This document shows, in pieces, positions 3,124 through 54,127 of a DNA stretch of 64,000 nt (the first letter of the stretch is position 1; each line of letters begins with the position of its first letter). A model generated the notes under the pieces. The model saw nothing but the letters and a program-made list of their open reading frames with translations. It made no database searches and was not told the DNA's origin. Source of the DNA: Escherichia coli (lineage in GTDB: Bacteria; Pseudomonadota; Gammaproteobacteria; Enterobacterales; Enterobacteriaceae); assembly GCF_013315695.1 (NCBI RefSeq), contig NZ_CP054353.1. One strand, 5' to 3'. Made by a program: the position numbers and the translations under genes.

Positions 3124-4077
3124 TTAACTACGTAAAATCGCCGCTGCTGTGTCCTGATCAGTAACCAGTGCGTTGATATAACCGCCTTTCATTGCAGCGG
3201 CAATTGCTTCGGCTTTATTTTCTCCCCCTGCCACGCCAACCCGGACGGGTATGGTCTTCAGCGCGCTTAAAGGTAAGCCAATCAGTTCGTTATGTATTTT
3301 GATATCCGTGACAACGTCACCTTTTGCATCAAAAAAGTAGCCTAAAATGTCGCCAACCGCCCCTTTTCGGCCAATCATTAACTGTTCGCCCTGGCTGATA
3401 TAACCGGAGCGAATGATCGTCGCGTCGTCTTGTTGACTCACGGCCCCAATGCCGACAATCGCCACATCCGCTGCTTGCGCGGCTAACAGAACATCTTTGA
3501 CGCAATTTTCATTTTTTAGCGTACGGGCAATGTCAGCGGAGGATGCCCGCAACGGAGCCGGAATAATATTCACACTGCACGCCGCGTTAAGCTGCCCGAT
3601 ACCCGTCATATAAGAACCGACGCCACCGGAGAGCGTGACCAGGCGAATTTGCTGTGACGAAATAAAACCACTTAAGCGTTGCAGCGTATTCATGATTGCC
3701 TCGCCAAAACCAATCGCCAGCATCTGTTGTGGTTGAAGTAAACTCATCAACATATGCGCCGCGCCTATCCCCAGTCGCCCGCCGACATCAGCATCCGCAA
3801 GCCCAGGGATCACCCGGACATGTTGCAGCGAAAACTGACGACGTAATTGAGTTTCATATTCCAGACAGCCTTCAAAGCGAGAATTAATCTGTACGCGAAT
3901 AATGCCGGACTGATGCCCTTTCTCCAGCAAGCGCGACACTTTCAAACGGGTCAGGCCGAGACGATCGCTGATCTCGCTCTGGGTCAGCCCGTCGTGATAG
4001 TAAAACCACGCGATCCGCGCGACCTGTTCTTCTTCACACATTCCCTGTTCTGAAATTGCCGAATCGTTGATTGTCAT
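3124..4077 (-). CDS. lsrR: LsrR, SorC-family repressor of the lsr operon
   Basis: 317-aa translation [51 protein letters not shown]... recognised as LsrR; divergent from lsrA. Confidence 0.95.
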
Positions 4078-41303: not shown

Positions 41304-42587
41304 TTAAAGACTTCTGGAAGGTTGCGCAGCTCTGACAACACGAAGTTGATCTTCCGCAGCGTCTTCCAGCGCACTTAAATCACGGTCTTTCACTTCTGGC
41401 ATTTTCAGCGCAGAGATTAAACCAATCACTGAATATGCCATGATCATAATGGCGATCGGATACCAGGATTCCGTCATGGTGCAGAAAATACCCGCCAGGA
41501 TAGGACCAAAACCGGAAGCGATAAGACCACCAATTTCTTTAGAAATAGCCATCCGGGTAAAGCGGTTTTTACAGCCGAACATTTCTGCCATGGTAATGTT
41601 TTCCAGAGCAAATAATCCCAGCACCGCACAGTTATGAATCACAATCAGTGCAACCATAATGGTGCTCGGGGCATAGCTTTTATCTACGATGATAGAAAGC
41701 ATTGGCCACGCCAGCACAATCGCAGAGGTATTCATAATAATATACGGGATCCGGCGACCTATTTTATCGGATAACCAACCAAGGAACGGAATGGTCATAA
41801 AGCCGAGAATCGAACTGATCATCAATGCATCTGTTGGAATTGCTTTGTTAAACAATAACGTCTGCACTAAATAGCCTGCAAGGAAAGTCTGAATTAAACC
41901 GGAGTTACCAGCCTGACCAAAACGCAGCCCTGTTGCCAGCCAGAAGGATTTGCTCTGGAACATGCTACCAGCAGGTGCAGGTTTTGCTGTCGGTTGGTTG
42001 CTGTCGTTAACCTTCTCAAAGACCGGGCTTTCTTTCAGATTCATACGCAACCAGATAGCAAAGACCATCACGACAACGCTCGCCAGGAACGGTATACGCC
42101 ATCCCCACGCCAGCAGTTCCTCTTTACTGAGAATGAAGAACATAAAGGCCCAGATTGCCGTTGCGCTTAAGGTTCCGCAGTTAGTTCCCATAGCCACAAA
42201 TGAGGAGATAATTCCGCGCTTACCTTTTGGCGCATATTCCGCCAGCATCGTACCGGCACCGGAAATTTCCGCGCCTGCCCCCAGCCCCTGAATAATACGC
42301 AGCGTCACCAGCAAAATTGGCGCAAACACACCAATTTGTGCATAGGTCGGCAGCACACCAATTAAGGTGGTACAGATCCCCATCATAGTTATGGTAATAA
42401 AGAGCACTTTTTTACGCCCGATTCTGTCGCCCATTTTGCCGAAAATAAATGCTCCGACAATACGCGCCACATAACCTGCACCGTAGGTTCCCATTGCCAG
42501 AATTAACGCCATTGCCGTTGATGATTCAGGAAAAAATATTTCATGAAACACTAACGCTGCGCCGAGCGAATATAACTGGAAATCCAT
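41304..42587 (-). pseudogene. ydfJ: MFS metabolite:H+ symporter YdfJ, 5'-truncated at the prophage junction
   Basis: 427-aa ORF begins MDFQLYS, i.e. inside the conserved N-terminal EWxDF region of this transporter family; prophage-side DNA starts immediately upstream. Confidence 0.7.
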
Positions 42588-43190
42588 AATTCACAGGTGT
42601 TTTTTCCCATCCTGTGGTTTCCTTGGCGTTTTCTAGGTTTTTTCAGATAGTTGCATTTTTTAAAAAGCATCCTAAGTTCGATCTCAGTGTCTATCTGGGG
42701 CCTATTTCTGTCCCATATATGCCCCAAAAAAACTCCTCAACAGATAAGTAGTTTTTTCATGGAGTTACGCGTAAAATCAATAACGGCTGGAAATCATTCA
42801 ATACTCGCACTATCGAAAAATTTACCAGCCAACCGCAGCACGTTCTTGCATAAGGCGTGTCTGCGGTTTTTCAACTATTCAGATACATCACTCCCATCAC
42901 ATTCATTCCTCCGCATCAAAGGCATATAGGCTATATCACCTTGATATTTTTCTTCTTCAGATAAAAACTGTTATCTATGTATACTTTTAAACCCAATCCG
43001 TGTAGAGTCTCTGCATAAGATAGTTTGCAGTTGCCACTTCAGCTTGCGCCATAAACCGCCTGATTTTTGCCGCCATCTGTTAGCATTCCTGTATACCTGA
43101 AACGACAATGTTTATCTACGAACTTTAAGAACACCCAGGATAAAAATTGTCAACTATATCATATATAACACATTACTAATTCGAGGCTAT

Positions 43191-43304
43191 ATGAACAGCA
43201 TACTGATAATCACTTCGCTCCTTATCATATTCAGCATTTTTAGTCATGCTCTAATAAAATTAGGGATTGGCATATCCAATAACCCAGACAAAACCGATGT
43301 ATAA
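43191..43304 (+). CDS. Candidate small hydrophobic protein, 37 aa
   Basis: ATG with RBS (cgaggctatATG); translation [37 protein letters not shown]; prediction only. Confidence 0.3.
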
Positions 43305-43372
43305 GTCAACATATCCTGAATCAGACATACAATATCGCAATGAAAATCAATAATATTTTAAGGAATATATTC

Positions 43373-43606
43373 ATGAAATCAAAAGACACCCTAAAGTGGT
43401 TCCCTGCGCAGCTTCCTGAAGTCAGAATTATCCTAGGGGATGCTGTAGTGGAAGTAGCAAAACAGGGAAGACCTATCAATACCAGAACATTGCTTGATTA
43501 CATTGAAGGAAACATAAAGAAAAAATCATGGCTGGATAACAAAGAATTATTACAAACAGCGATATCAGTTCTTAAAGACAACCAAAATTTAAATGGTAAA
43601 ATGTAA
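43373..43606 (+). CDS. ydfK: YdfK, prophage cold-shock-associated protein
   Basis: Translation MKSKDTLKWFPAQLPEVRIILGDAVVEVAKQGRPINTRTLLDYIEGNIKKK... recognised (YdfK/YnaE family). Confidence 0.9.
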   Translation: MKSKDTLKWFPAQLPEVRIILGDAVVEVAKQGRPINTRTLLDYIEGNIKKKSWLDNKELLQTAISVLKDNQNLNGKM

Positions 43607-43922
43607 TATAATAAACTTACTTTTTTATCATTTTTCCACTTTAACAACATTTTGCTCCACTTTTCCACGACCAAACAACTTGAAATCTGGTTAAAATAAC
43701 ACGCAACACTATTCTTCTTCCTTGAGTCCGCCCGGAACTCGAAAAACAAACCGAGTTAAAGCCATTTTTCACAAAATCGATTTTGGGTCTCACCAAAATT
43801 ACGGGGTTGCATACGCATTCGTTTATTTTCGAACGTGTACATACAAACATGCACAAAAATAATCAAAATTATTTTCTGAGATGCATTATGATATGAACAC
43901 CAATTTCGTATAGAGTCTCACT

Positions 43923-44513
43923 ATGTCTCGAATTTTTGCTTACTGTCGGATATCAACGCTGGATCAGACCACCGAAAATCAACGCCGGGAAATCGAAAGT
44001 GCAGGTTTTAAAATCAAACCTCAGCAAATAATCGAAGAACACATTAGCGGCTCAGCAGCAACCAGTGAGCGTCCTGGTTTTAACCGGTTGCTTGCTCGCC
44101 TGAAATGTGGTGATCAATTGATTGTGACAAAACTGGATCGCCTTGGTTGTAATGCAATGGATATCAGGAAAACAGTGGAACAACTGACCGAAACAGGTAT
44201 CAGAGTGCATTGCTTAGCATTGGGGGGCATTGACCTGACCAGTCCAACAGGAAAAATGATGATGCAAGTAATTTCAGCAGTCGCTGAATTTGAACGAGAC
44301 CTTTTACTTGAACGCACTCATTCCGGGATAGTAAGAGCCCGGGGCGCAGGGAAACGTTTTGGTCGACCACCTGTGTTAAATGAAGAACAGAAACAGGTGG
44401 TATTCGAACGGATTAAGTCAGGTGTAAGTATAAGTGCCATTGCCCGGGAATTCAAAACCTCGCGGCAAACCATTTTAAGAGCCAAAGCAAAACTTCAGAC
44501 ACCTGACATATAA
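43923..44513 (+). CDS. pinQ: Serine-recombinase DNA invertase (Pin/Gin/Hin family)
   Basis: 196 aa; N-terminal resolvase catalytic domain (YCRISTLDQ) and C-terminal HTH; prophage context. Confidence 0.9.
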
Positions 44514-44740
44514 AAAATAATCTCGGTGTGAGATGCCTTACGTCTTCCAAGCCCCCTTCCTTGCCGTAAATGGAAAGATACATCTAATTATAGAATTTAT
44601 ATGTTTTACCCTACGGCAGTGCTGGCCATTCAATATCCTGTGCAGTTGACGTATCAACACGGTTCAGCAACACCCGATACTTCTTCCAGGCTTCCCGCAA
44701 CGAGGTTTCTTCCTCCGTTGCATATACAGCTCACCTTTTT

Positions 44741-45034
44741 TCACCCACGATTAACCAACAGCCAGACCAGCAGACACGCCACCACCGGCACAGCAAAATC
44801 CATCAGGCTTGCCACATCCCACGCACGCGGATCAAAACCGCCCCACCACGGCATATTCATACGCTTGCCATGCCCGAACATTTCAATCCAGCGATATTCT
44901 GCCTGGGTATGTTCACGCGCAATGAAGAACGTACAACCAGCTATCGCCCCGTAAGCCCAGTTTCCGGTAAAAAGACCAACCAGTACCTGCGCAGCCACAG
45001 CACAAAGTGCATGAAGGAAAGGTGTTATATCCAT
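44741..45034 (-). CDS. Hypothetical small membrane protein, 97 aa
   Basis: Two hydrophobic segments flank a charged W/R-rich loop; start 11 nt after the stop of the 234-aa ORF. Confidence 0.5.
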   Translation of the reverse strand: MDITPFLHALCAVAAQVLVGLFTGNWAYGAIAGCTFFIAREHTQAEYRWIEMFGHGKRMNMPWWGGFDPRAWDVASLMDFAVPVVACLLVWLLVNRG

Positions 45035-45044
45035 TACGCCTCCT

Positions 45045-45749
45045 TTATCCGATATCGCTTCGGGAAACGGATAACAACTTTAATTCTGACTCAAGTTCAT
45101 CAACTCTTTCAGTCAGCTTCTGGATATGGTGAATCAGTGGAACAACCAGACGTTCGTACATTACACCTTCGGCAACAAGGCCATTGCTGGAAATGGTTTC
45201 CGGTGCATCATCTTCGTTGGCTGGTCGCCAGTGAACAAACTGAGGGGCAATTTCTCCTACTTCCTCGGCAATCAATCCATAGAATCCCCAGTCACGCCTG
45301 TCATTTTCGCATTGCGACCTGTACCACACAGGGCGCATCCTGAAAATGAGATCGGCGTGCTCTGAATCTATCGTCTCTACTGAATGTTTATAGCGGATAG
45401 ACGATGTTGACCGCAGCACAGACGAAATTGCAGGGTCAGGATTAAGATAAAGATTTGCCGCCGCTGTAGTTGTGCCCAATCCCCATAAATAAAACGCTTC
45501 ACGGCCAGTCAGCGGGTAAAAATCTCCGCCATAACGACCACTTTCCAGATCGTTCACTTCCACTTTGTTTTTCAGCTTATTATCAACTTCAGTTTTTGTG
45601 TATCTGGTGCTGATATCCTGCTTTGCACTGGCCATATCAGTCTGAAGCGTTGATACTTTTCCGTTAATAGAGGAAATATCTTCCTTTGCTTTACTAACAT
45701 CTCCCTTCAGCGTGGTGATGTCTCCCGGAATTACTGTTGATGTAGCCAT
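45045..45749 (-). CDS. Tail fibre/tailspike-like protein with C-terminal intramolecular-chaperone (peptidase S74-like) domain, 234 aa
   Basis: N-terminal coiled-coil-like region; C-terminal TSSIRYKHSVETID...GLIAEEVGEIAPQFV...YERLVVPLIHHIQKLTERVDELESEL resembles the autoproteolytic chaperone of endosialidase-type fibres. Motif-level recognition only. Confidence 0.5.
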   Translation of the reverse strand: MATSTVIPGDITTLKGDVSKAKEDISSINGKVSTLQTDMASAKQDISTRYTKTEVDNKLKNKVEVNDLESGRYGGDFYPLTGREAFYLWGLGTTTAAANLYLNPDPAISSVLRSTSSIRYKHSVETIDSEHADLIFRMRPVWYRSQCENDRRDWGFYGLIAEEVGEIAPQFVHWRPANEDDAPETISSNGLVAEGVMYERLVVPLIHHIQKLTERVDELESELKLLSVSRSDIG

Positions 45750-45758
45750 TTCTCTACC

Positions 45759-46040
45759 TCACATCCAGCCACGAAGTTGATGCTCAACAGCAACCGCGTA
45801 TTCATCGAATAATGACGATATTTGCGTATCCTTAATAATGCGCACGTTTACAAAATATCCATCTTCCTTAACACATACCGGTTCGCCATCTTCAGTCAGC
45901 TCTCCGGTTTCTTTGTACACGTTACCTATCACATCAATCAGAATATCATCCTGCATCGACTCGTCATTATAATAGCCAATACTTCCCATAAAGGCCGAAA
46001 AGTCGGCCCTGTCGGCAAATTTGAGTGTTAAATCTTTCAT
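45759..46040 (-). CDS. Hypothetical acidic protein, 93 aa, translationally coupled to the native stf stop
   Basis: ATG overlaps the TAA of the reconstructed stf reading frame (TAATG); no recognisable domain. Confidence 0.45.
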   Translation of the reverse strand: MKDLTLKFADRADFSAFMGSIGYYNDESMQDDILIDVIGNVYKETGELTEDGEPVCVKEDGYFVNVRIIKDTQISSLFDEYAVAVEHQLRGWM

Positions 46041-46246
46041 TAGATTGACTCCCCCATCTGAGCATCAGTCAATGCCTTGTGCCAAATACGCAGATTTCGA
46101 ACGTGTCCAAATAGGTGACGGTTGCCGGATGATGATTGACCACCAATATTAATGAAGCCTCCTGTATATTTGTGTTTTTTATAAGGAGAAAGGTGATGCT
46201 GCCAACTTACTGATTTAGTGTATGATGGTGTTTTTGAGGTGCTCCA

Positions 46247-46522
46247 GTGGCTTCTGTTTCTATCAGCTGTCCCTCCTGTTCAGCTACTGACGGGGTGGTG
46301 CGTAACGGCAAAAGCACCGCCGGACATCAGCGCTATCTCTGCTCTCACTGCCGTAAAACATGGCAACTGCAGTTCACTTACACCGCTTCTCAACCCGGTA
46401 CGCACCAGAAAATCATTGATATGGCCATGAATGGCGTTGGATGCCGGGCAACAGCCCGCATTATGGGCGTTGGCCTCAACACGATTTTACGTCACTTAAA
46501 AAACTCAGGCCGCAGTCGGTAA
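46247..46522 (+). CDS. insA: IS1 InsA
   Basis: Identical 91-aa InsA translation to copy A. Confidence 0.95.
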
Positions 46523-46944
46523 CCTCGCGCATACAGCCGGGCAGTGACGTCATCGTCTGCGCGGAAATGGACGAACAGTGGGGCTATGTCGGGGCTAAAT
46601 CGCGCCAGCGCTGGCTGTTTTACGCGTATGACAGGCTCCGGAAGACGGTTGTTGCGCACGTATTCGGTGAACGCACTATGGCGACGCTGGGGCGTCTTAT
46701 GAGCCTGCTGTCACCCTTTGACGTGGTGATATGGATGACGGATGGCTGGCCGCTGTATGAATCCCGCCTGAAGGGAAAGCTGCACGTAATCAGCAAGCGA
46801 TATACGCAGCGAATTGAGCGGCATAACCTGAATCTGAGGCAGCACCTGGCACGGCTGGGACGGAAGTCGCTGTCGTTCTCAAAATCGGTGGAGCTGCATG
46901 ACAAAGTCATCGGGCATTATCTGAACATAAAACACTATCAATAA
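46441..46944 (+). CDS. insB: IS1 InsB
   Basis: 167-aa InsB; one residue differs from copy A (G versus E near the C-terminus). Confidence 0.95.
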
Positions 46945-48379
46945 GTTGGAGTCATTACCAAGGAGAAACTACCTTAGCACCAATATTACCGTTAACCACA
47001 ACACACAATTCTCGACTTTCTGTGAATCTAAAGCCGATAATGCTTTTTCTCTCTGGTCGTTCTATAACGCTTTTATATTCTATTTTAGTGCCTTTACCAT
47101 TTGTAATGATTGCGCGTGCTCCCAAAGATGTATACCCCAAATACATATAACTTTCATCTGCAATTTCAGTTGTATCTCCCGTAGTGGAAATATTAAGAAT
47201 ACGTGCGCTACCTTCTTTGTTTGGCGATTCATCCCAATTGGTATTAACTTCTGCTAATGAACTAATAGCGGGATTGCACCAATTTAGAGAAATGGGGACC
47301 GTTACAATATCGCTGGCGCGTGTTACAGGGGATGCGCCTGTTATAATAAACGATGAAGCGCATGCCCCACCTTCAACTTGAGGGGTCGCAATATAAATAT
47401 AATCATCCGCGCCAGTGCCCACTCCTTTTGCCGGGGCATACTGAACCATTCCACCTATCATATTTTCTGTATCAAGTGCCTTAATTGTCGCCTCAAAAAA
47501 GATCCATTTGCTTGCTTCATCTTTAACAGCCCTTGCAGTAATGCGATTAGCGGCACCACCCGTCTTATCAATAGATAAATCTGTCGTATTTAAGTAAGCG
47601 TCACCTAAGAATGTGTAGGTAGAACCATCATAGTTTTCAAATCGTAATCGGCATCTTAAATTTGGAGTGCCACTTTGCACCCTGCATGATATGGTTACAT
47701 ACTTTTCTCCGCCTGTTACATCAAAACCTTTACTGCCGGAAACGGTTACTATGTTAATCGCTGAAATTTGCCCTACCATTTCTGGTTTTAATGTAAATTT
47801 TGCGTACTGGAATCCGAAATCATCTACACCTGATGCACTTAAGATCATATTTGACGACTTGTTCCATTTAGTCGGATTTGTTGAATTGATTAGCAGGTTA
47901 GTTCTTTGCCCCTCAATAAGCAGGCCATCACGTTCAAATCGTGGCTCGTCAATGGCAGCCTCTGTCAGCACACCAGATTTATTAATGTAAGTTGCTTTCG
48001 ATGCGCGTTTAAACTTTACAATCTTGTCGCCAGGCATTGTTATTTCATCGTCGCCAATAACAATTTTTTTATATGATGGCGAAAAGCCCGTAATCATATC
48101 CAGTGAATCATTAAACGGTATCCACACATCGGGCAACGGCTGCAAAACTTGTTTATACGGCTCCGCTGCCTGGCTTGCATACTCTCTGGCTGCGTCTTCA
48201 CTTGCTTTAGCTGCTGTCTGGCTTGCTGCCGATGCTTGCGCCGAGTTCGCCGCCGCAGTCTCGCTCGCCTTTGCGTTGGTTTCACTGGTTTTTGCTGCTT
48301 TTTGACTGTTAGCTGATGCAGTGGCAGAAGCAGCCGCCGCGCTTGCAGAACTGGCTGCGGCACTCTCGCTTTGGGCCGC

Positions 48380-48700
48380 TGCATCCTGACTGCTTTTCGC
48401 CGCAGTTTCACTGGCTTTGGCATTCGTTTCGCTGGTCTTCGCTGCCGTCTGGCTGGACTTTGCGTTAGTTTCACTCGTCTTCGCAGCTTTCTGGCTGTTA
48501 GCCGCAGCAGTTGCTGATCCAGCTGCTGAAGTCGCAGAACCGGCTGCCGCGCTCTCGCTTTGGGCTGCTGCAACCTGGCTGTTTTTTGCCGCAGTTTCAC
48601 TGGCTTTGGCATTCGTTTCGCTGGTTTTCGCTGCCGTCTGGCTGGACTTTGCGTTGGTTTCGCTCGTCTTTGCGGCTGTCTCGCTATTTTTCGCGTTGGT
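48380..48700 (-). repeat. Tandem 189-bp (63-codon) direct repeats inside stf
   Basis: gcagtttcactggctttggcattcgtttcgctgg... recurs at 48402 and 48591 (offset 189 bp); a more diverged copy lies upstream. Confidence 0.8.
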
Positions 48701-49229
48701 TTCTGATTTTTTGGCTGCTGTCGCGGAGTTTGCCGATGCAGTCTTTGAGGTCGCTGCCGCCTGTGCACTATTAGCTGCATTCGTTTCTGAGGTTTTCGCC
48801 GCGTTCTTCGATGATGCCGCTGCAGTTTCGGATTTCTTTGCCGCCGCTGCGCTCTGAGAGGCGGCTTCAGCGTTGCGTGCCGCTTCTTCCACCATTTCCT
48901 CAAAACGACGCAATGCCTCCGGCATGACATCATCTTCCGTCATGGCACCGAGAAAATCATTCAGCGTACCTGGTCTGGAACCTTCATAGACGGTAATGGT
49001 TCCGGCATGTGAAGGCGGAAAACCTTCAACCAGCAGGGTGACGCTGTACTGGCCATACTCAACATCCATGCTGTAACGCCCGGCTTCATCCGGATTTTCA
49101 GAGGCCACTGTGTTGACCAGTACCGTGGTGCTGTTACGCTTTGCCTTCAGTTGAATAGTGCAGTTCTGTATTGGTTTTCCCGCACCATCTTTCAGCACAC
49201 CTGAGATTTTTACTGCTGCCATATCCACT

Positions 49230-49953: not shown

Positions 49954-50793
49954 TCAGCTGATACTGATGCCTGCGGTGGCTTTCTTCATCACCACAACCA
50001 GCAGATCGCTGATACTTGCTGTGGGATACCAGTCATTTACCAGCCATGCTGACACCGAAAACTCCAGCGTCATGTGACCGTGACCGGCAGGCATATCAAT
50101 AACGCCACTGTAAATCAGCGTATTATCCAGCGCGGTACGGTTATAAATTTCAGCACCGTTTTTCCGCACTATCAGACGGCATGAGGAGTAAATATCAGTA
50201 TGCTCTCTCTCATGTTTAGCGCCGCTGAATGCCACCGCCGGAATAACAATCTGCCGGTCAAACGGCTGATCGTCATAAACCCTGACGGTAATGGTCCCTG
50301 ATGGCCACCGTTCCGGTGCACGGGAGTCCCGGGGGAAAGCTTTGCCCACTGTTTTAACGAGATCGCCTTCAATCTGGTTCGCGGACAGTTTTCCCAGAAC
50401 CCGACAGTTCTCGTTAATCGTGACGTTGTTGAGCGTCCCGGAGTTCGCATTCACGTTACCACTGATATCCGCATTTTTAGCAGTCAGCTTTCCGTCCGGT
50501 GTCAGGGAAAATGCCGGTGGATTTCCACCACTGGTAATGGTGGGGGCCGTCAGGCGCTTCAGGAACACGTCGTTCATGAATATCTGGTTGCCCTGCGCCA
50601 CAAACATCGGCGTTTCATTCCCGTTTGCCGGGTCAATAAACGCGATACGATTGGCGGCAACCAGAAACTGACTCAGTTTGCCTTCCTCTGTATCCTCCAT
50701 GCTGAGGCCAATACCCGCGACATAATGTTTGCCGTCTTTGGTCTGCTCAATTTTGACAGCCCACATGGCATTCCATTTATCGTTGGCATCCTT
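49954..50793 (-). pseudogene. J: C-terminal 280 codons of tail tip protein J, N-terminal part deleted
   Basis: Translation ends like lambda J (...[36 protein letters not shown]); upstream boundary is the IS3-family terminus at 50794; no ATG start. Confidence 0.85.
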
Positions 50794-50801
50794 TGTAGTG
50801 G

Positions 50802-54127
<3,326 letters not shown>

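Follow-up and report, generated by a model that had tools for sequence, protein, structure and literature searches.

What the interval between the orphan invertase gene pinQ and the side tail fibre gene stf contributes to a prophage is the question raised by a 64,000-nucleotide (nt) stretch of the Escherichia coli contig NZ_CP054353.1 (assembly GCF_013315695.1), which was analysed in this study and is referred to below as the window. Three co-oriented open reading frames (ORFs) of 93, 234 and 97 amino acids (aa) lie in this interval, and an earlier note, made from the sequence without database searches, had described them as one module of three genes. We find all three at that place on the minus strand, but comparison with phage DNA divides them into two evolutionary units. 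The three genes appear to be the outer end of a largely ordinary, widespread multi-protein side tail fibre locus and not a new system, and the explanation that we favour overall, as the probable one, is that the first unit encodes a two-part fibre and the second a separate membrane protein. The features on which the argument depends are as follows.

46960..49228, minus strand: 5' part of stf, codons 1-756, cut by the insertion sequence (IS) IS1; matches phrog_1419 'tail protein' over residues 4-755 (E 0)
46192..46959, no strand assigned: IS1 insertion of 768 bp, with IS1 ends and the 9-bp target duplication TTTCTCCTT read directly
46040..46191, minus strand: 3' end of stf, C-terminus ...GGQSSSGNRHLFGHVRNLRIWHKALTDAQMGESI followed by the stop codon, by reconstruction
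45759..46040, minus strand: 93-aa gene, encoding an acidic soluble alpha/beta protein of phrog_1361
45045..45749, minus strand: 234-aa gene, encoding a short second fibre with N-terminal motif, coiled coil, small tip and Peptidase_S74 chaperone
45654..45749, minus strand: conserved N-terminal motif MATSTVIPGDITTLKGDV..., codons 1-32 of the 234-aa gene, a proposed docking element
45048..45404, minus strand: intramolecular chaperone domain, codons 116-234 of the 234-aa gene (Pfam PF13884)
44741..45034, minus strand: 97-aa gene, encoding a three-helix membrane protein of phrog_1443 (UniProt name Ybl63)

Substitutions relative to phage orthologues are biased towards third codon positions in all three ORFs, thus the 93-, 234- and 97-aa ORFs are genuine coding genes. 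They are separated by gaps of 9 and 10 nt and have AGGAGG-type ribosome-binding sites. On their upstream side, one copy of the IS1 target duplication TTTCTCCTT lies at 46960-46968, and removal of IS1 with one duplication copy restores an 803-aa Stf whose TAA stop overlaps the ATG of the 93-aa gene as TAATG, which bears out the coupling proposed in the earlier note. Loci lacking the insertion and otherwise 100% identical are present in other E. coli genomes, including that of strain GABEEC10.

The division into two units came from the points at which DNA homology to other phages begins and ends. With the temperate phage Tritos, homology takes in the 3' end of stf, the 93-aa gene and codons 1-20 of the middle gene, where it breaks off, and it returns exactly at the start of the 97-aa gene and runs on into pin. 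With the virulent Drexlerviridae phage tunus, 64% nucleotide identity extends from the 3' end of stf through most of the 234-aa gene and excludes the 97-aa gene, and with phage 21 the match consists of the 97-aa gene and part of a remnant of the tail fibre assembly gene tfa only. These breakpoints define a first unit composed of the stf end with the 93- and 234-aa genes, and a second unit composed of the 97-aa gene with the tfa remnant; the single module of the earlier note is therefore not upheld, as the 93- and 234-aa genes travel with the 3' end of stf and the 97-aa gene separately. The first unit is present in the virulent phages tunus, PeterMerian, KarlBarth, JenP2, phC11 and IrisVonRoten, and the virulent groups that carry it include Drexlerviridae, Dhillonvirus, Nonagvirus and T5-like phages. 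The complete series of stf, 93-, 234- and 97-aa genes was found in the active phages PhiR49_1 and IdasGreatGrand, while in Tritos, HannyBb, 2G7b and PhiR63_1 a 346-aa fibre is encoded between the 93- and 97-aa genes. In a set of 80 IMG/VR loci from E. coli prophages, this middle position is taken by a 234-aa product in about 37 and by a 346-aa product in about 24, with 229-323 aa in a few; the N-terminal motif stands at the start of almost all of these products, and a member of the 97-aa family nearly always comes next. The 1.3-kb block as a whole, at a coverage of at least 80%, was found in 722 of 5426 complete E. coli genomes (about 13%), and partially in 1924, mostly as the 97-aa gene. Its RefSeq names are 'tail fiber domain-containing protein' and, twice, 'hypothetical protein'. 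Past the 97-aa gene, the active lambdoid phages PhiR49_1, Lambda_4C10 and phage 21 carry a YbcY-like gene, an omptin protease precursor gene or a sitABCD manganese/iron transporter operon.

The same distribution bears on the other suggestion made for these genes, namely that all three form a moron or superinfection-exclusion cassette that acts for the lysogen and is unrelated to virion structure. Their position at the end of the late region on the attachment-site side, where morons accumulate, and the membrane nature of the 97-aa product would fit such a cassette. We consider this explanation highly improbable, since strictly virulent phage families have the 93- and 234-aa genes with order and coupling unchanged, the homology of the 234-aa protein to tail fibres is clear, PADLOC gave no matches, and the genes show neither a promoter-like site of their own nor a deviating G+C content, which is about 0.50 in the interval, like that of its neighbours. 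The idea that the three genes have their own promoter was likewise set aside, as a consensus scan, which may miss a weak or non-canonical promoter, gave no promoter-like sites on the coding strand. Thus the moron reading is discarded for the 93- and 234-aa genes, given their presence in virulent phages, and what survives of it is a possible application to the 97-aa gene.

The 234-aa protein is the member of the first unit whose relationships are clearest. Its residues 116-172 match Pfam PF13884 (Peptidase_S74) over model positions 1-57 of 58 (E 2.2e-5), the same domain is precomputed on its close homologues, and the best solved relative of this region in a PDB search was DT57C LtfA (8hqz, aligned at 952-1068), thus the likeness to a C-terminal intramolecular chaperone noticed before was borne out. 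The PDB search also showed a likeness between the first 60 residues and the trimeric coiled coil of P22 gp26, and the PHROG matches are tail fibre families, including phrog_3299 and phrog_454, with a further match to phrog_4563 confined to residues 1-32. Full-length orthologues of 57-62% identity were found in about 40 virulent Drexlerviridae, and the part from about residue 60 to residue 234 recurs at the C-terminal end of other fibre proteins whose N-terminal domains differ, e.g. PF12571.

A virion-anchoring N-terminal domain of the kind present in Stf, which belongs to tail fibre families including phrog_1419 from residue 4, carries an NCBIfam head-spike-fibre domain at residues 437-638 of its 5' part and is named 'prophage tail fiber N-terminal domain-containing protein' in RefSeq, was not found in the 234-aa protein. 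However, the conclusion that it lacks any virion-attachment domain is contradicted by its N-terminus. In an alignment with the second fibres of Tritos (346 aa), tunus (245 aa), KarlBarth (98 aa) and phC11 (586 aa), residues M1, T3, T5, I7, P8, D10, I11, L14 and K15 are invariant (M.T.T.IP.DI..LK) in all five proteins, which come from lambdoid, Drexlerviridae, Dhillonvirus and T5-like phages, range from 98 to 586 aa and have different bodies. At the DNA level, homology between the 234-aa and 346-aa alleles ends after about codon 20. The combination of a constant N-terminal motif with an exchangeable body points to a receptor-binding tip that can be exchanged while its docking element stays constant, and we propose that the motif anchors the protein in this way. 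The chaperone domain has an S-x-x-x-x-K dyad formed by Ser116, which is position 1 of the Pfam model, and Lys121, and both residues are kept in four of the five aligned second fibres, that is, in all those with the domain. Self-cleavage just before Ser116 would leave a putative mature protein of 115 aa and 12.4 kDa.

The 93-aa protein, on the other hand, seems to be a partner of Stf. It has a pI of 4.2, is not hydrophobic and belongs to phrog_1361, a family annotated as of unknown function; no match to it was obtained in Pfam, NCBIfam or PADLOC (0 families at E 0.1), and a PDB sequence search returned noise only. Its AlphaFold2 (AF2) model is confident and shows an alpha/beta fold with three helices. 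The word-indexed homologue search for this protein covers matches more than 80% identical only, and tblastn retrieved homologues in 181 phage records. Carriers comprise lambdoid phages (phage 21, Tritos and PhiR49_1), an SSU5-like plasmid prophage, and virulent Drexlerviridae, Dhillonvirus, Nonagvirus, T5-like and rV5-like phages. At 87 of 90 loci, a long ORF located upstream terminates 1 or 4 nt within the start codon of the 93-aa gene, and at 80 of them the C-terminus of that ORF contains R[IVL]W[HN]..L[TN]D. Nine aligned upstream fibres have the C-terminus IRIGGQTxTGxRHLFGHVRNFRIWHKxLTDxQ in common, and the conserved C-terminal domain of Stf in the window ends ...RIWHKALTDAQ. In phage 21, Lambda_4C10, many Lambda_ev phages and the rV5-like phage naswa, the 93-aa gene is not followed by a second fibre, thus its product is a partner of the lectin-like C-terminal domain of Stf and not of the 234-aa protein. 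The earlier note had suggested a receptor-binding tip with its own chaperone, of which the part concerning a 234-aa fibre with an intramolecular chaperone stands, and the 93-aa protein, being present in phage 21, is not that chaperone. A profile of the 93-aa family also gave 5-13 matches per protein to PKD-like tandem repeats of giant proteins of 1300-6100 aa, which are probably a compositional artefact of the ...Y.V.VR.LDD.. strand of the family; a PKD or immunoglobulin-like repeat identity was rejected in view of the alpha/beta fold of the AF2 model and the absence of a PKD domain according to Pfam.

Taken together, the two-part fibre that we favour would work in the following way. Stf, 803 aa long without IS1, would be the proximal fibre with a lectin-like C-terminal domain, and the 93-aa protein, made by translational coupling from the stf stop, may act on or with this domain as an assembly helper or as a component of a joint. 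The 234-aa protein would dock through its invariant N-terminal motif onto the Stf/93-aa end, its trimerisation would be driven by the coiled coil and the C-terminal Peptidase_S74 chaperone, and the chaperone would then cut itself off before Ser116 to leave a tip of roughly 12 kDa, supplying a second, exchangeable receptor specificity. Several points weigh against this scheme. Docking, cleavage at Ser116 and a presence of the 93-aa protein in the virion are all putative; the 93-aa protein cannot be solely an adaptor for the second fibre, judging from its retention in phages that have none; once mature, the 234-aa protein would be very small, at 115 aa; and its orthologues are labelled 'putative lateral tail fiber chaperone' in BASEL phages.

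The last two points, together with the label 'chaperone of endosialidase' given to orthologues elsewhere, are in favour of a rival explanation, in which the 234-aa protein, half of which is chaperone domain, is a free-standing chaperone that trimerises Stf in trans, the 93-aa protein is a second assembly factor, and neither enters the virion. It could also be argued that Stf, which lacks Peptidase_S74 and is not followed by a Tfa gene, needs some folding aid. Nevertheless, the same slot and the same motif are found in proteins of 346, 348, 574 and 586 aa that have large domains of receptor-binding type before the chaperone, and the middle part is swapped as a cassette between constant flanks, which is the pattern of a specificity determinant. 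Moreover, phage 21 and many lambda-like phages have this Stf type and the 93-aa gene without any such protein, which implies that Stf folds without it. Known members of the chaperone family, such as those of endosialidase and T5 pb1, act in cis. The 234-aa protein resembles these PF13884 proteins in its Ser and Lys five residues apart and in a trimeric-fibre-like coiled coil before the domain, and differs from them in its passenger of just 115 aa, with cleavage and trimerisation being predictions here. We thus regard action in trans as unlikely.

That fibres can be built from successive proteins in this manner is known from other phages, and the first BASEL paper described the lateral fibres of these siphoviruses as composed of one, two or more proteins. 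The closest counterpart to the two-part fibre favoured here is the gp22-gp23-gp24 series of the Tequintavirus IrisVonRoten (Bas32), which has the same gene order and overlaps. Its gp22 ends ...RIWHKELTDRQM, as Stf does in the window (the shared ending of this proximal fibre being ...RIWHKELTD), its gp23 (92 aa) is 38% identical to the 93-aa protein (E 5e-24), and its gp24 starts with MVTKTVIPTDITKLKN and has the chaperone domain at its end, thus combining the N-terminal motif and the Peptidase_S74 chaperone as the 234-aa protein does. In a published AlphaFold-Multimer prediction, gp24 is a distal fibre joined to gp22 as the proximal fibre, and the galectin-like domain at the C-terminus of gp22 protrudes (10.1101/2024.09.12.612763). 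IrisVonRoten differs in that its distal fibre has 574 aa and a predicted T shape with two binding domains, compared with the minimal 234 aa here, and in that this virulent phage lacks the 97-aa gene; the preprint is silent on the small gp23 (10.1101/2024.09.12.612763). The principle of an anchorless second fibre that joins the first by a short conserved N-terminus is likewise known from LtfA/LtfB of DT57C and DT571/2 and from gp14/gp15 of phiEco32 (PMC4728585, PMC10713586). Golomidova et al. showed genetically that DT57C LtfB attaches through LtfA, and described a conserved 45-residue N-terminus that LtfB has in common with phiEco32 gp15 (PMC4728585). The DT57C and DT571/2 proteins also share with the 234-aa protein C-terminal chaperones of the self-cleaving type, recognised in the latter from its sequence. 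However, the N-terminal motif found here has no detectable similarity to LtfB or gp15, and LtfA, unlike Stf, ends in its own chaperone domain and not in a lectin-like one, with no 93-aa partner described. We conclude that two-part fibres of an already known kind have a lambdoid representative in the first unit. Neither the Eligo lambda-Stf preprint nor the PhageMaP preprint contains anything on the three genes.

The 97-aa protein of the second unit is of a different nature. It belongs to phrog_1443 (E 4e-59), which like phrog_1361 bears the annotation 'unknown function', and has no match in Pfam or NCBIfam; a PDB sequence search gave noise only, and a Foldseek search of its model against AFDB50 returned members of its own family ('Ybl63' or uncharacterised) and weak neighbours annotated DUF2238, DUF2784 and DUF1772. 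No mention of the name Ybl63 was found in a literature search. The AF2 model (pLDDT 93.5) has helices at residues 4-23, 26-52 and 74-96, and hydropathy shows strong peaks at 5-24 and 74-96 with one further moderately hydrophobic segment, thus the membrane protein of the earlier note is retained, with three predicted helices in place of two. Among 58 sequences of the family, 14 positions are invariant, including H8, R40, E41, Q44, E46, Y47, R48, W72, D79 and P83. A profile search of public data yielded 2293 clusters, from Enterobacteriaceae, Aeromonas, Comamonas, Halomonas and others.

Intact copies of this gene follow unrelated receptor-binding genes of sipho-, myo- and podovirus-type phages, almost all of them temperate or prophages. 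It was found directly after Stf/93-aa in phage 21 and an SSU5-like plasmid prophage, after the tailspike and just before int in the P22-like JEP4, after Tfa in phiHAP-1, after the P2/HP1-type fibre in Aeromonas and Leclercia prophages, and after a J-like tip protein in Comamonas. On the other hand, it is absent from the virulent carriers of the first unit that were examined (tunus, PeterMerian, KarlBarth, JenP2, phC11 and IrisVonRoten). This temperate-biased distribution suggests that the fibres do not need the 97-aa protein and that it serves the temperate lifestyle, and we propose that, as a three-helix inner-membrane protein, it would act for the lysogen or the infected cell rather than in fibre assembly. 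By analogy, our guess is that it might exclude superinfecting phages at the membrane or have another role in lysogeny. Small prophage inner-membrane exclusion proteins include HK97 gp15 and T4 Imm, and the 97-aa protein is similar to this group in its small size, its helices, its membrane nature and the position of its gene among or behind tail genes, for the most part in temperate phages or prophages; it differs in that neither sequence nor profile searches related it to a named family, and in that no promoter of its own was detected. A degenerate, unannotated remnant of the family (…RRANIPWWGGFDWRAWDLPSLLD) was also observed in the Escherichia phage HC6, at 3465-3620 of the stretch examined, directly after a tailspike with an endosialidase-type chaperone end; no integrase was found in that stretch, and the membrane gene looks to have travelled with the spike cassette and then decayed.

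Some observations count against a role of the 97-aa protein in lysogeny. No sigma-70-like or terminator-like site was found on the minus strand of 44741-46191, in consensus scans that may miss a weak or non-canonical promoter; the 97-aa gene starts 0-10 nt after the previous stop or overlaps it; and the tail operon of HP1/P2-like prophages includes it. Such a position, with tight juxtaposition and no promoter-like site of its own, looks like late co-expression and not like a moron expressed by the lysogen. In addition, no exclusion or defence family of PADLOC matches the protein (0 families at E 0.1), and the Aeromonas jumbo phage PS1 has an intact-looking 87-aa homologue (phrog_1443, E 5e-15) at 3429-3692 of the stretch examined, following a DarB-like antirestriction gene and not a fibre gene, which is an exception to the rule of following receptor-binding genes. 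As an alternative, the 97-aa protein might be made late and assist the receptor-binding proteins; it could keep new fibres, spikes or released virions off the envelope of the producing cell, or could couple fibre maturation to the membrane. The close or overlapping start after fibre, Tfa or tailspike stops, the tail-operon position, the lack of a promoter-like site here and the linkage to receptor-binding genes of all three tail types would agree with such a helper. Yet the virulent phages examined have the Stf/93-aa/second-fibre unit without it, thus fibres assemble and work in its absence; behind the HC6 tailspike it has decayed to a remnant; and its conserved charged loop is probably cytoplasmic according to the positive-inside rule, away from the envelope targets of the fibres. 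We thus find a late helper rather improbable and prefer a function for the lysogen or the infected cell. A bolder extension, which we offer as a joint and frankly tentative proposal, is that Ybl63 represents a new and very widespread class of membrane proteins hitch-hiking behind the receptor-binding genes of temperate sipho-, myo- and podoviruses, where it might do a receptor-independent job such as blocking entry of a superinfecting genome at the inner membrane, and that the 93-aa family could be an unrecognised structural joint protein of lectin-ended lateral fibres.

The junction between the fibre genes and the invertase gene remains to be accounted for, and two further features are needed here.

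44611..44721, minus strand: 3' remnant of tfa, about the last 36 codons, a pseudogene (from its translation and the RefSeq annotation in GABEEC10)
43923..44513, plus strand: pinQ, orphan serine invertase gene convergent with the fibre genes (phrog_125 DNA invertase, E 7e-69)

The tfa remnant, which had been overlooked before, starts 19 nt past the stop of the 97-aa gene, and RefSeq labels the same place in GABEEC10 as an incomplete tail fiber assembly protein (pseudogene). Phage 21, Tritos and PhiR49_1 have inherited this remnant along with the 97-aa gene and with the same junction, which indicates one old recombination event. The three ORFs themselves have no match to a Tfa family among Pfam, PHROG and NCBIfam, so that the statement that none of them resembles lambda Tfa was correct, the Tfa-like sequence being confined to the non-coding remnant. 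Compared with the stf-tfa genes of lambda, Rac and Qin (K-12 type), the locus has the same genome position after J and lom and the same virion-anchoring N-terminal part of Stf, and the tfa 3' remnant and the orphan pinQ survive in it, but the C-terminal half of Stf is of another type, and the 93-, 234- and 97-aa genes are present instead of Tfa. An invertible fibre segment was considered and ruled out, as no Gin/Pin consensus crossover site with up to 3 mismatches was found in the window and no inverted repeats bracketing the three genes were found; pinQ is therefore an orphan with nothing invertible here.

The prophage that carries this locus is dead. Besides the splitting of stf by IS1, the tail region is largely deleted and J is truncated next to IS elements: only its last 283 codons are left, at 49954-50805 (lambda_TipJ positions 878-1163), adjoining an IS3-family transposase ORF (50802-51548, minus strand), after which comes an IS30 transposase gene (51772-52923, plus strand). 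The three ORFs are intact here, yet they are unable to contribute to a virion, and the locus is a relic for which no phenotype is expected in this particular genome. At about 48000-48950 on the minus strand, stf has a long repetitive stretch rich in Ala, Ser and Thr (AAKTSETNAKSSQTAAKTSETNAKASETAAK...), with an AT skew down to -0.59, a G+C content of 0.55 and long spurious ORFs in other frames. On the other side of pinQ, the region 42500-43900, as far as the truncated ydfJ, is AT-rich (G+C 0.34-0.39) and contains small genes that resemble ydfK and ynfT; the prophage is inserted in ydfJ, which is without its N-terminus as a result.

For E. coli and its phages at large, these results correct an annotation gap, since a block present in about 13% of complete E. 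coli genomes is labelled hypothetical or tail fiber domain-containing. Recognition of a two-part side fibre with an exchangeable 234- or 346-aa tip would help to predict the host range of prophages and phages, and a compact, self-folding tip module is on offer for the engineering of lambda-type particles. The fibre-coupled 93-aa family and the mainly temperate 97-aa family are both common, confidently folded and unstudied.

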